Shown one piece after another: positions 12,001-18,000 of a stretch of 64,000 nucleotides of DNA. Made by a program: the position numbers. Position 1 is the first letter of the stretch; the number at the start of each line of letters is the position of its first letter. This stretch comes from a plasmid, in assembly GCF_054482595.1 (NCBI RefSeq), contig NZ_JBTHVH010000004.1; one strand, written 5' to 3'.

Positions 12001-15000
12001 TTTAATATTAACGCTTTGGTTTATGAAAATTTATCCAATTTGCTCACCGAAGACTTTTAACTTATTTAACCCCCTTTATCGCCAATCTGTGATTTTCTAA
12101 TGTTAGCCTACAGTTCTAGGGCCCTTGCTCCCATGATGCGAATCCTTCCACCTAATAAAGATTAACGCCTCATTCCTGTATGCCGGTCTTACGACGCCAG
12201 TGCACGGACAATTTTTGGTCATCACAAGGCCAGGCGGGAGATTTAATCAGGGCGTGGTGTTCCTTAGCAGCAGCTGCGGCACTGTAAGCCGAAGGCGGAA
12301 TTAACTCCTTTATCGCCATCTGGGGACGTCATTAGGGGTACCCCTTTTAACTTGCTCAGGACCATTAAGCTAAAATTCCGGATAGTGATTGACGTAAGAT
12401 TTAGGCTAAGCAGGTAAAGTGATCCCCGCTCCCGGGGTGACCACTTTATACAAAAGGCCGATCGGAAGATTGTCCTTAGGGAAATATTCCTTTAACACAG
12501 CACGGGCACTTACTGCCGCTGCCGGATTTAACCCCCTTAATCGCCAAACTGGGGTACTGTCCTGATGCTGGCCTTCAGTTCTGGGCTGGGTGGCTATCAC
12601 TTCCTCCCATAATGCGAAATGTAACTGCTGATACAGATTAACGTCATATTCCTGCGTGCCGGTCTGCCAACACCAGTGCACGGGCTTTTTTCGGTCATCA
12701 CATTACCGGGCAGGAGATTTTATCAGGGCGTGGTGTGACTGAGCAGAAGCTGGGGCACTGTCAGCAGCTTGCAGATTTAACCCCCTTAATCGCCAAACTG
12801 GGATTCTGGTCTGATATTGACCTTCCGTGCTGGGCGGGGTTCGGTTTGCTAACACTTACTCCCATGATACGAAATGTGCCTGCTGATACAGATTAAAATC
12901 ACATTACTGCATACCGGTCTGCCGACACCGGTGCATGGGCGATTTCCGACGATCTCAAGAACATATGGGAGATTATATCAGGGAGAGTAGTATGCCTGAG
13001 CAGCATCTGAAGGCACTGTCAGCCGCTGTCAGATTTAACCCCCTTAATCGCCAAACTGGTGTTCTGTCCTCATGCAGGCCTTCAGTTCTGAGCTGGGTTG
13101 CTATCACTTGCTCCCATAATGCGAAATGTACCTGCTGATACAAATTAACGTCGTATTCCTGTATGCCGGTCTGCCGACACCAGTGCTCGGGCTATTTTCG
13201 GTCCTAACAAGACCTGGCGAGAGATTTAATCAGGGCGTGGTGTGACTGAGCAGCAGCTGGGGCACTGTTATCCGCTTGCAGATTTAACCCCCTTAATCGC
13301 CACACTGGGGTTCAGTCCTGATAGTGTCCTTCCGTCCTGGGCTCGGTTGCTAACACTTGCTCCCATTGCGCCTGCTGATACAGATTAAAGTCACATTACT
13401 GCATACCGATCTGCCGACTCCGGTGCATGGCTTTTTCCGATAATCACAAGGACGGACGGGTGATTTTATCGTTGCATAGTATGTCTGAGCAGCATCAGAA
13501 GGCTCTGTCAGCCACTGGCAGATTTAACCCCCTTAATCTCCAAACTGGGATCAGTCCTGATAGTGTCCTTCCGTCCTGGGCAGGGTTGCTAACACTTGCT
13601 CCCATGATACGAAATGCGCCAGCTGATACAGATTAACGTCTCATTACTCCATGCCGGTCTGCCGAAACTGGTGCATAGCTTTTTTCGATATTCGCATGAA
13701 CAGACGCTTGATTTTTTCAGGTTGTAATATACCTGAGCAGCATCTGAAGGCACTTTCAGTCGCTGTCAGATTTAACCCCCTTAATCGCCAATCTGGGATT
13801 TTCTGATGTTAACCTACAGTTCAAGGCCCTTGCTCCCATGATGCGAACCTTGCAACCTGATAAAGATTTAAGCTTCATTCCTGTATGCCGGTCTTACGAC
13901 TCTAGTGCACGGGGACTATTTTCGGTCATAATAAGACCTGGCGGGAGATTTAATCAGGCGTGGTGTGACTGAGCAGAAGCTGGGGCACTGTCAGCCGCTG
14001 GCAGATTAAAACCCTTTATTCGCCATCTCAAGACGTCATTATGGGTAGTCCTTTTAACTTTCTAAGGACCATTAAGCTTAAACTCCGTTTAGAGAATGAC
14101 GTAAGATTTAGGCTAAGCAGGTTAAGTGATCCCCGCTCCCGGGTTGAACACTTTATTCATCGTACGAGCGAAAGATTGTCCTTCGGGAAATATTTCTTAT
14201 ACACCGCTCGGGCACTTACAGCCACTGGCGGATTTAACCCCCTTAATCGCCAAACTGGGGTACTGTCCTGATGCTGGCCTTCAGTTCTGGGCTGGGTGGC
14301 TATCACTTGCTCCCCTAATGCGAAATGTGTCTGTTAATACAGATTAACGTCATTTTCCTGCGTGCCGGTCTGCCGACACCAGTGCACGGCCTTTTTTCGG
14401 TCATTACATTACCGGGCAGGAGATTTTATCAGGGCGTGGTGTTACTGAGCAGGAGCTGGGGCACTATCAGCAGCTTGCATATTTAACTCCCTTAATCGCC
14501 AAACTGGTGTTCTGTCCTCATGCTGGCCTTCAGTTCTGGGCTGGGTTGCTATCTCTTGCTCCCATAATGCGAAATGTATCTGCTGATACAGATTAACGTC
14601 ATATTCCTGTATGCCGGTCTGCCGACACCAGTGCTTGGGCTATTTTCGGTCATAACAAGACCTGGCGAGAGATTTACTCAGGGCGTGGTGTGACTGAGCA
14701 GCAGCTGGGGCACTGTCATCCGCTTGCAAATTTAACCCCCTTAATCGCCAAACTTGGGTTTTGTCCTGATGCTGGCCTTCCGTTCTGGGCGGGGTTGCTA
14801 TCACTTGCTCCCATCATGCGAAAAGTGCCTGCTGATACAGATTAACGTCATATTCCTTCATGCCGGTCTGCCGACACAAATGCACGGGCTTTTTTCGGTC
14901 CTTACAATACCGGGCAGGAGATTTAATCAGGGCGTGGTGTGACTGAGCAGCAGCTAGGACACTGTCAGCCGCTGGCAGATTTAACCCCCTTAATCGCCAC

Positions 15001-18000
15001 ACTGGGGTTGCCTCCTGAAGTTGGGTTTCAGTTCTGGGCTAGGTTGCTAACTCTGCTCCCATAATTCGTAGTGGGCCTACTCAAGAGATTAACACCTCAT
15101 ATCTTTAGACTGGACTGACGACAACGATTCACAGTTAGGAAACGTAAATCAGCACACCGGTGAGATAGATTTTAGGGTCTAAGCAAGAAATAGGGTAGGC
15201 GTGAAGATTCATTAATGGAGCTCATAACGTCAAAGCGTAGAGAAGTCGACAAGAATCGTGGTTTAAAAAGAATGAGCATTAGGTATGGACTAGAGAGTCT
15301 GAGCTCTCATCTGCAAGTTAAGCTCACAAAAAATCATAAAAAAGTAAACAAACATTAGCTTAGGATTGAAACAAAGGATAGAATTGTACGTATAACAATG
15401 AAATGGACGCATTATGCGTAAAGTTTACATATATGCGTAAAAGTCGGTTTTCAGTGCAAAAAGGTCATAACCATGAATTTACTTGAAAAGATCGCCCTCG
15501 TTGGTCAGCGCATGAAAAGCGAGCAGATTTCTCTTAAGGAATCTCTGATGGCTTCATCAAGAGTATCTGTTTCTGATGATAGTGTTGATGGTGTTGATAG
15601 ACTGATCTACAACCACTGTTTAAATAAAAAAAATCTCTCTGATTTTTTTGGGAAGTCACGAGTAACGTTCAATAAAATACTTTCGGACTTAGAAGAAAAA
15701 GAAGTTGTTGGTGCACCTATTTATCAAAACAAAAATCATCTTTACACCCGCTGGGATGTTCAAAAAATAATGGATGCCCTGGGTTATCCCAAGTACCGCG
15801 ATCATTACTTTAGCAGAGCTATTGTTACTCAGAATCATAAAGGCGGTACAGGGAAAAGCACTACATCTGTAGCTTTAGCAGTAGCAGCTGCTTTAGATCT
15901 ACAACTGAATGCACGTGTATTAATGATCGAATGGGACCCACAAGGTTCGATTGGAAGCAGCATGATTCAAAGTGTCTCAGAAGATGATGTCTTCCTTACA
16001 GCAATTGATGCAATCCTTGGAATTTATGAAGAAAATTCTGAGTATAAAAAATATTTAGATTCAGGATTCTCTGAAGAAGAAATCATCACTAATATGCCTT
16101 TTTCAACGCATCTGCCAAACTTGGACGTGATAACGGCATTTCCGACAGATGCTCGTTTTAAAGATAAATACTGGCAATGTTCTAGAGAAGAACGAACGTC
16201 TTTGTTACTACGTTTCAAGGAAGTTATCTTACCGGTACTGAAGCAGAACTATGATTTGATTATTATAGACACTCCACCTGAAGATTCACCTTTGATCTGG
16301 GCTGCTGACGAAGCGGCCGATGGGATTCTTGTCGCAGTGTCACCACGTGAATATGATTACGCCTCTACTACAGACTTCATGCTTACAATAAGTGAAAGGT
16401 TTAAACAATCACCAAGTAAGGGCGATAATTTAAAATGGTTCAAAGTTCTTGCTGTCAATGTTGATGACAAAAGTCCATATGAAAGAATAGTTTTGGATAA
16501 ATTAATCAGAACTGTTCAGGACCTTTTGATGTCCGCTAACATAAAAAATTCTGAAGCATTTAAGGCAGCTGCTTCCAAAGGGCGTACAGTGCTTGATATC
16601 AAAAAATCAGAGGAACTTTGTTCCGCAAAGCAACTTGATGTCGCAGAAGAATCTGTATTACAGGTATATCAACAATTTATAAATGAAATAAAAAGTTTTT
16701 CAGCTAAGCAAGGAGTTAACGCATGAGCGATGAGCAACATATCGGGAATGATAAATCTCGATATTTAAACGCACCAAAGCGGACAGAAGTCGGTCACCGT
16801 TCAGGTCTTGCGGGTTTGAAAACAGCACCTCGCATAAAAAAGTTATTCACTCTTCATAAGGGCCGAAGACTTGAAGCGGAACATGTGATTGTTCCAGCCC
16901 AGAGAGTGGAGAAGGAGACCTTAGTCCATCCAGCAAACCCACGAAATCAAGAAGCCCTTACAGATTATTCTGTTAGAGATATTCTTAAGCAGATTGAAGA
17001 AAGAGGGGTCGATACCGAAGGGATCGCTGTAAAAAGAGATGGGGTTTATTTATTAATAGAAGGAAGTCGCAGACGTTTCTGCTGTATAAAGGCAGAAAAG
17101 GATCTCCCCCTGTGGGTACTACCGGATGAACTAACCGAAGATGATATAAATTCAATTATATCCGCAGCACAAACATCTCGAAAATTTTCATATAGAGAAG
17201 TTGGGTTTCAATTTATCAAGAAAATGGAAGAAAAGGGATTTTCTACTAATGAAGAACTCGCAGCATATCTTGGGATTAGTCATGTATCGGTAGCCAAAAG
17301 AATCCAGGCGGCACGTATTGACGAAACATTGATCTCTTTATTCCCGGATTATGAAGGAATACCGAACTCCTATTATAGTCGCTTGTCTCGTTTACAGAAA
17401 TATGTGCAAAAAAATCTATTTCCTTTAGATGAAGTAATAGATAATGTTAAAGAGGAAACAAAAGATTTAGACATTGGAGATCTCCAAGTTGCCCAAAAAG
17501 TTGTAATGGAGAAAATCACACAATCTGTGGAAAGTGTTTGTGAAAAATCTTATTCCACAAAATGGGAAACAAGTGATCTTATTACTTTTGATAACAAAGA
17601 TAAGTATGCAAGAATCAGTAAAAACAATACTGGAAGAAAAATTCGCATTGAATTCAATAGGATAAGTGCGGGTTTTATTAAGGAGCTAGAGGAGTTCATA
17701 AAAGAAAAATTAAAAGTATCAGAATAAATATTGAACTGCATCTTTATGATGCAGTTCATATGATTTATATTTTTAATTTCTTGTTATATTAATATGGGGT
17801 GTGCGCAGGTTCAGACATATAAGGTCTTAGTTCTATATGAACAGAAGCGCCATTCCCATCATTTACTACGTTTAAAGGTGCTTTGCCCGGCAATGACATA
17901 GTTGCAACGTCAGGTCCAGAAACAGCAAAATTATTTTCTGCTGAAGGCATTACTGTAAAAATCTTTATAGCAACATTTTCATGTCTAAATAAAGAAATCC

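Follow-up and report, generated by a model that had tools for sequence, protein, structure and literature searches.

What does an array of long direct repeats, about 3 kb in all, do between a transfer gene and a pair of partition genes? The question is raised by a stretch of plasmid DNA of 64,000 nucleotides (NCBI RefSeq assembly GCF_054482595.1, contig NZ_JBTHVH010000004.1; this whole stretch is referred to as the window), in which tandem repeats fill most of the 3836-bp gap between trhC, also called traC (an open reading frame [ORF] of the TraC family, positions 8955-11636), and parA (15473-16726, + strand). An earlier note on this DNA had named the same two flanking genes, and had offered the repeats as an extended centromere, as an incompatibility or copy-control determinant, or as a binding platform for a nucleoid protein. 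Sequence comparisons favor the first of these options: the array at 12064-15140 is very probably a multi-copy parS, the ParB-loading centromere of the Par1 ParA/ParB system (type Ia) of an IncHI2 resistance plasmid. The centromere option is supported by a repeat core that is common to IncHI1, is linked to parAB in unrelated plasmid backbones, varies together with ParB, and is built from boxes like those of P1 parS.

The window comes from an R478-like IncHI2 plasmid. It is collinear with R478 from R478 coordinate 1, and its genes are ordered as Rep gene, Tra2 genes, TraC/TrhC, ParA, ParB, and, further on, parM. Hundreds of IncHI2 plasmids, found in Escherichia, Salmonella, Enterobacter, and Klebsiella, contain the region 11600-15500 at 99-100% identity; in PLSDB, 1129 records match it, 533 of them at an identity of at least 99%. 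IncHI2 plasmids are major vehicles of resistance genes: mcr-1, tet(X4), and genes for carbapenemases and heavy-metal resistance.

The repeats form the sole tandem array in the window (Tandem Repeats Finder, 12515-15093, period 249 bp, 10.5 copies, score 1764). Anchoring the units on a conserved 21-bp core, ATTTAACCCCCTTAATCGCCA, extends the array to 13 head-to-tail units, each headed by this core, all on the + strand, and spanning 12064 to about 15140. Twelve of the units are complete, with lengths from 226 to 258 bp and a mode of 249 bp, while unit 13 (14979-15140) is truncated and its likeness to the other units fades by about 15095-15140. The earlier description of about 13 tandem repeats of 225-260 bp is therefore confirmed, and all of the motifs that it quoted are present. 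Exact copies of the core head units 3 (12526-12774, 249 bp), 4 (12775-13032, 258 bp), 5 (13033-13281, 249 bp), 6 (13282-13521, 240 bp), 8 (13770-14004, 235 bp), 10 (14232-14480, 249 bp), 12 (14730-14978, 249 bp), and 13. The core has one mismatch in unit 1 (12064-12299, 236 bp; core at 12064-12084), in unit 7 (13522-13769, 248 bp; within the B-box discussed below, which reads TCTCCA), and in unit 11 (14481-14729, 249 bp). Units 2 (12300-12525, 226 bp) and 9 (14005-14231, 227 bp) are divergent and have a degenerate core (ATTAACTCCTTTATCGCCA in unit 2) with a retained B-box.

Units 8, 9, and 10 repeat units 1, 2, and 3 after 1706 bp (88, 85, and 94% identity, respectively), and unit 11 is a second copy of unit 5, 1448 bp further on (95% identity). 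Units 4, 6, and 7 make up a subfamily of their own. The higher-order repeat of 1.7 kb that the earlier note had described is thus real, as is the recurrence of its two variant units (units 1-2 as units 8-9, at coordinates 10-20 bp away from those it gave). However, its block of seven units was too large: because units 4, 6, and 7 have no second copy, a clean seven-unit duplication is not borne out. What was duplicated is a block of at least three collinear units, perhaps five with one later lost, and the second copy of this block begins with unit 8. Units 2 and 9 constitute a distinct variant, being 85% identical to each other and 66-78% identical to all other units, and they carry a G+C-rich near-palindrome (GATCCCCGCTCCCGGGGTGAC). 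Markers of these two units (spacings of 221-223 bp or variant cores) are seen in the other IncHI2 arrays of 10-16 units, and the variant may have a role of its own.

Could the array instead be the remnant of a repeat-protein gene or a set of small-RNA genes? The modal unit length of 249 bp is divisible by 3, and some annotators call small ORFs inside the array. However, no reading frame of any canonical unit is free of stop codons, the longest open run in the array (100 codons) is shorter than the mean of shuffled sequences (124 codons), and the ORF that spans unit 9 is interrupted by eight stops in the paralogous unit 2. The sites at which the five 249-bp units vary are distributed as 14, 21, and 17 over the three codon positions, i.e., without codon periodicity. 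As for small RNAs, no Rfam match was found in the array at E ≤ 1, and promoter- and terminator-like sites are not enriched. We regard the chance of either kind of gene array as negligible, and the view of the earlier note that the array is non-coding, with small ORFs that are artefacts, agrees with these results. Many records call such spurious ORFs within the array, and their annotation could be corrected.

If the array does not encode a product, which part of the unit matters? The 21-bp core is the best-conserved 21-nucleotide window of the unit: its mean pairwise identity is 0.91 compared to 0.65 for the remainder, or 0.97 compared to 0.76 when the divergent units 2 and 9 are excluded. Six IncHI2 plasmids together supplied 18 distinct canonical units, among which the core is invariant while the remaining columns vary. 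When up to three mismatches are allowed, ATTTAACCCCCTTAATCGCCA has 11 copies in the window, all on the + strand and all within the array (shuffles of the window give an expectation of 0.00), and the DNA 3′ of parB has none throughout the window. The layout of the core is ATTTAAC-CCCC-TTAAT-CGCCA, in which two convergent A-box-like arms (ATTTAAC, then CTTAAT as an inverted copy that is one base short) are followed by an abutting B-box, TCGCCA. The B-box is found in 12 of the 13 units at unit position 16 (position 14 in unit 2). Most likely, the functional element is this core and not the whole unit of 225-260 bp.

The core is confined to few places. Across 100,044 species-representative genomes, a scan for its exact sequence returned only six stretches and no new contexts. 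In five of these stretches, the copies are spaced by multiples of about 249 bp, as they are in the IncHI2 array. The sixth is a 381-bp contig assigned to Streptomyces cahuitamycinicus (coverage, 0.86), which is probably a contamination by an enterobacterial plasmid.

Relatives of the system were collected by searching PLSDB with the ParB protein and fetching one locus per identity class. In R27, the IncHI1 prototype, the gene order is the same (trhC, a repeat-filled gap of about 3 kb, parA, parB), ParB is 71-72% identical, and the gap carries about 27 copies of a 52-54-bp repeat in two clusters. The invariant part of the R27 repeat is ATTTAACCCCCTTAATCGCCA itself, on the same strand relative to parA. 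Same-strand copies of ATTTAACCCCCTTAATCGCCA in the trhC-parA gap, as in R27-like Par1 of IncHI plasmids, are also what the window contains. In contrast to R27, the window has its 13 cores about 249 bp apart, the spacers of the two plasmids are unrelated, and the units of 226-258 bp lack the short period of 52-56 bp that is shared by R27, a pNDM-CIT-type plasmid, and the Kluyvera plasmid pKATP1. The pNDM-CIT-type plasmid (ParB, 74% identity) has 12 copies of the same core at 54 bp directly 5′ of parA. Plasmid pKATP1 (73%), which has a different backbone and no trhC nearby, has seven copies of ACTTAACCCCCTTAATCGCCA at 56 bp, also directly 5′ of parA. Among the more distant relatives, one from Providencia (55%) has two single sites, AAACAACCCCCTTGTTCGCCA, one on each side of parAB; one from Klebsiella pneumoniae (49%) has about 25 copies of AAAACAACCCCGTTGTTCGCAG at 66 bp; one from Klebsiella michiganensis (48%) has 41 copies of AAAACAACCCCCTTGTTCGCAG upstream and 14 downstream at 67 bp, and the 20-nucleotide part of its core is identical in 43 copies; and one from Serratia symbiotica (48%), in a Dot/Icm backbone, has four copies of TAAACACCCCCTGTTTGCCCA at 38 bp. 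In these loci, the core follows parAB, and not trhC or a rep gene, across unrelated backbones and replicon types.

The core also changes together with the protein that is proposed to read it. Arm pairs were tabulated in ungapped register, since MAFFT, when given the six core types, placed the Serratia core out of register. The pairs at (5,13), (4,14), and (3,15) change on both sides and stay complementary, while the C-rich center is constant. With increasing divergence of ParB, the arms pass from TTAA/TTAA through ACAA/TTGT to AACA/TGTT, and the predicted recognition helix of ParB changes in step with them, from GISHVSVxKR through xxxESVRKR to GVTSINKR. Similarly, the C-terminal segment of ParB changes in step with the B-box. 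Such co-variation is the pattern that would be expected if a dimeric DNA-binding protein, encoded by an adjacent gene, recognizes the site. The ParB clade thus offers a natural series in which the box design is constant, the number of boxes ranges from 2 to about 55, and their spacing ranges from 38 to 249 bp, and it would be useful for asking how the number and spacing of sites shape ParB loading and spreading.

The two Klebsiella arrays, which are IncHI5-like or related, show how far the design can be varied. They share with the window a ParB of the same clade (48-49% identity), tandem same-strand arrays, an invariant core of like design (AAAACAACCCCCTTGTTCGCAG), and higher-order periods, here of 324-334 bp, equal to five units. 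They differ in that every 66-67-bp subunit has the full core, in that parAB is flanked by arrays on either side, which have up to 41 plus 14 copies, and in the sequences of the arms and the B-box. In the K. michiganensis locus, the arrays are located at 4586-7353 and 10068-11030, and in the K. pneumoniae locus, at 3986-5505, 6755-6913, and 10194-10349, with a copy of ISKpn34 (5577-6697) between the first two of these segments. Both loci are surrounded by several genes for 800-amino-acid proteins with Ig-like domains.

The protein products encoded next to the array fit, by sequence, the type Ia pattern of a Walker-type ParA with a long N-terminal extension and a ParB encoded directly 3′ of it. 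ParA has 417 amino acids, with an N-terminal extension of about 110 amino acids that presumably serves as a regulatory DNA-binding domain and a Walker A motif, KGGTGKST, that begins near residue 123. It gives partial matches to models of the ParA, RepA, and SopA partition ATPases, the match to the SopA model NF010259 reaching only E = 1e−7 and 31 bits against a cutoff of 725, and the R478 annotation calls its product a ParA family protein. The parB gene (16723-17727, + strand) overlaps the end of parA by 4 nucleotides and encodes a P1-ParB-like centromere-binding protein of 334 amino acids, the proposed reader of the 21-bp core. This protein has the P1-type C-terminal domain PF08775 (residues 207-330, E = 9e−11), aligns to the crystal-structure chains of P1 ParB in PDB entries 1ZX4 and 2NTZ (residues 150-330, E = 4e−16), and matches the NCBIfam model parB_part and PRK13698. 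Its arginine motif, GSRRR, is invariant across the ParB clade and in P1. Overall, however, its identity to P1 ParB is only 28%.

How does the proposed centromere compare with those of the classical type Ia systems? The annotated right arm of P1 parS consists of ATTTCAA (A2), a G, GTGAAAT (A3, inverted), and TCGCCA (B2, which overlaps A3 by one base). Hence, in both the P1 sequence ATTTCAAGGTGAAATCGCCA and ATTTAACCCCCTTAATCGCCA, a B-box abuts a convergent pair of A-box-like heptamers, and this B-box, TCGCCA, is the same in the two. The A-box sequence differs. Moreover, P1 parS is a single site 3′ of parB, with two arms around a bend made by integration host factor (IHF) and a further A-box, whereas the window has 13 tandem sites upstream of parA without a recurring IHF consensus. 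With its tandem sites upstream and none 3′ of parB, the array is therefore a P1-type parS at the level of the boxes and not in organization. The tandem arrangement resembles that of F sopC, which consists of tandem direct repeats, each with one short inverted-repeat site for a type Ia ParB-family protein. The sopC repeats are 12 contiguous 43-bp units downstream of sopB, whereas the units here are 249 bp long, lie upstream of parA, and have a box of the P1 A/B type.

Some of these differences weigh against reading the array as a centromere. The period of 249 bp is far longer than the 38-67 bp of any relative examined. No IHF site recurs, with only one match to WATCARNNNNTTR in 11600-15500. The centromere is located downstream of parB in both P1 and F, and not upstream of parA as it would be here. 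Finally, the 228-bp spacer between the cores and two orphan half-sites within it, which are described below, do not fit a simple model of one box per unit.

Given the resemblance to P1 at the level of the boxes, we propose that each unit would act as a single composite site for ParB, ATTTAAC-CCCC-TTAAT-CGCCA. If this protein acts as P1 ParB does, the two arms would be recognized by the helix-turn-helix domains of a dimer, and the B-box by the C-terminal dimer domain. A partition complex would be nucleated at the 13 sites, with ParB spreading over about 3 kb, and nucleoid-bound ParA-ATP would position this complex so that each daughter cell inherits the plasmid. The array would, in this way, stabilize the plasmid. 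The spacer would be IncHI2-specific passenger DNA that is reshuffled by unequal recombination. Because partition incompatibility is a corollary of a centromere, the array is also expected to be an incompatibility determinant, with extra copies of it titrating ParB, and because the core is identical in IncHI1, such incompatibility may extend to IncHI1 plasmids. Stabilization and partition incompatibility have been reported for the R27 homologue only (PMC4489591). If the array is a centromere, its 21-bp ParB box would be a concrete target for plasmid curing or for incompatibility-based displacement, and cross-talk in partition between IncHI1 and IncHI2 could be explained, in testable terms, by the shared core.

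Unlike the core, the 228-bp spacer is specific to IncHI2. No significant match to it was found in R27, in the six relatives, or in the rest of the window, and a distant blastn search of PLSDB recovered it only in the same 1128 IncHI2 records. The spacer carries conserved short blocks. The only internal echo of the core is an 8-mer, AGATT(T)AA, which lies, always on the + strand, around positions 110 and 190 of the unit (e.g., at 12635, 13222, 14341, and 14919). This motif is present in most units, compared to a chance expectation of about 0.01 matches per unit, and equivalents (AGATT or GATTGAC) align near positions 110 and 190 even in the diverged units 2 and 9. An origin of the 249-bp unit from degenerate short units is not supported: a profile built from 35 short units of R27, the pNDM-CIT-type plasmid, and pKATP1 matched only the 13 unit heads, and local alignments of sub-segments were no better than those of shuffled sequences, save for artefacts of overlapping coordinates.

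One could conjecture that the spacer is more than passive filler, and that ParB dimers link a full box to the orphan half-sites, looping each 249-bp unit. A second and separate prediction is that the centromeres of IncHI1, IncHI2, and pNDM-CIT-type plasmids, which have an identical core and ParBs that are only about 72% identical, may be cross-recognized. We consider this extended reading unlikely. If it were true, looping would give the partition complex a higher-order architecture unlike the close-packed 38-67-bp arrays of the related plasmids, and cross-recognition would contribute to incompatibility across the IncHI group.

The conserved short blocks of the spacer and the orphan AGATT(T)AA motifs could also point to a different protein altogether. 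The array lies within the Tra2 transfer region and adjoins trhC, and an exact 11-mer, AAGTAAACAAA, flanks it three times; hence, the array might be a platform for another plasmid or host protein, such as a transfer regulator, a nucleoid-associated protein, or ParA, with the proximity of parAB being incidental. However, proximity to parAB is retained by related cores in backbones that have no trhC or Tra2 genes nearby, and the core both co-varies with the ParB sequence and has the A-box/B-box layout of P1. Individual candidates also fare poorly. The nucleoid-protein platform that the earlier note had offered disagrees with base composition, since the array has about 50% G+C in flanks of 33-40% (33-35% at 11637-12050), which is the opposite of an H-NS target, and ParA has a separate operator-like motif at 15405-15445. 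Altogether, we find a platform for another protein very unlikely.

A conserved core of about 21 bp in direct repeats, an A+T-rich stretch 5′ of the array (11637-12050), and a Rep gene 11 kb away are features that an iteron-type replication or copy-number determinant, which titrates a Rep initiator, would also have. Yet the Rep gene (1-876) is followed on its 3′ side by different repeats of its own, about ten copies of a 20-bp sequence, CATTCAnnnAAATGCyTTTG, at 1014-1599. These copies are in both orientations, their sequence is unlike the array core, and they are probably the iterons of the Rep replicon. Since the core adjoins parAB in plasmids of other replicon types, and thus follows parAB and not rep, and since it is an inverted repeat with a P1-type B-box and not an iteron of any Rep that is present, we consider a copy-control function, which the earlier note had listed among its options, extremely unlikely. 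A paper on "incC" of R27 deals with RepFIA iterons and not with this array.

The centromere proposed here is of a known kind in an unusual layout, and its peculiarities in IncHI2 are the specific 228-bp spacer and the turnover of units. Eight other IncHI2 plasmids were examined; in six of them, the trhC-parA gap measures 3089-4592 bp, which corresponds to 10-16 units, and an unannotated IncHI2 plasmid has 14 cores. The array of R478 has the same length as that of the window but a different unit content, and the two arrays align at 67% identity compared to about 99% in the flanking genes. At the other extreme, the gap of pSH111_227 (2735-4119 of its locus) is only 1383 bp long, with about three units, compared to 3836 bp in the window. 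Either this short array is a minimal centromere of natural origin, or the repeat has collapsed, which is possible because the assembly is an older one. The length of the array is a variable and assembly-sensitive marker. The landmark pairs (units 1-2 and units 8-9) are recognizable in all other arrays of 13-16 units by their spacing, and in one plasmid (L018) by its variant cores; the block duplication thus appears to predate the split of these IncHI2 lineages.

Such turnover might suggest that only the cores, or nothing at all, is functional, and that the array is a selfish satellite that recombination has expanded in IncHI2, with most of the 13 units dispensable. The range of 10-16 units, the single record with only three, the rearrangement between the window and R478, the two single sites of the Providencia relative, and a spacer without a homologue outside IncHI2 would all be compatible with it. 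To a large extent, however, this explanation overlaps with the centromere, as the cores would still act as one. The cores are near-invariant while the spacers drift, and 39 of the 40 IncHI2 records listed, out of the 1128 that have the spacer, retain at least seven spacer matches, which suggests selection for multiple sites. We therefore judge a dispensable satellite to be very improbable.

Between the array and parA, the region at 15405-15445 (+ strand) is a probable operator or promoter region of parA. It contains TATGCGTAAA twice (at 15413 and 15432, 19 bp apart) and a palindrome, ACGCATTATGCGT, lies about 30 bp 5′ of the parA start codon, and is unlike the array core. R27 has an equivalent near its parA, the palindromic TATGCGTAAACTTTACGCAT in 2.3 copies, and the annotated ParA operator of P1 has the same position relative to parA. 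The region is probably the operator through which ParA would regulate its own expression.

On the other side of the array, a hairpin followed by a U-run (11664-11698, + strand) is located directly 3′ of the trhC stop codon, as detected by RNA folding and as an inverted repeat. The fold of 11637-11710 has an energy of −16.6 kcal/mol (z = −3.9), and none of 200 shuffles folds equally well. The hairpin looks like an intrinsic terminator that marks the upstream boundary of the locus, and it probably ends Tra2 transcription ahead of the centromere.

The 11-mer AAGTAAACAAA is confined to the two array flanks, where it occurs three times (11708-11718, 11831-11841, and 15342-15352), compared to about 0.03 exact copies expected per window, with an inverted partial copy at 11894-11905. 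It was not noticed in the trhC-parA gap of R27 on reading the printed sequence of that gap, of which no formal search was made. Its copies are embedded in longer repeats of 21-24 nucleotides (TGTAYGCNTTAAGTAAACAAA), and it may be a site for another regulator.

Beyond the partition genes, the window departs from R478. While the sequence 5′ of the array is about 99% identical to R478, the region 3′ of parB (17728-30000) aligns at only 78%, with gaps of about 2.7 kb, which indicates that segments of Tra2 have been inserted, deleted, or replaced here.

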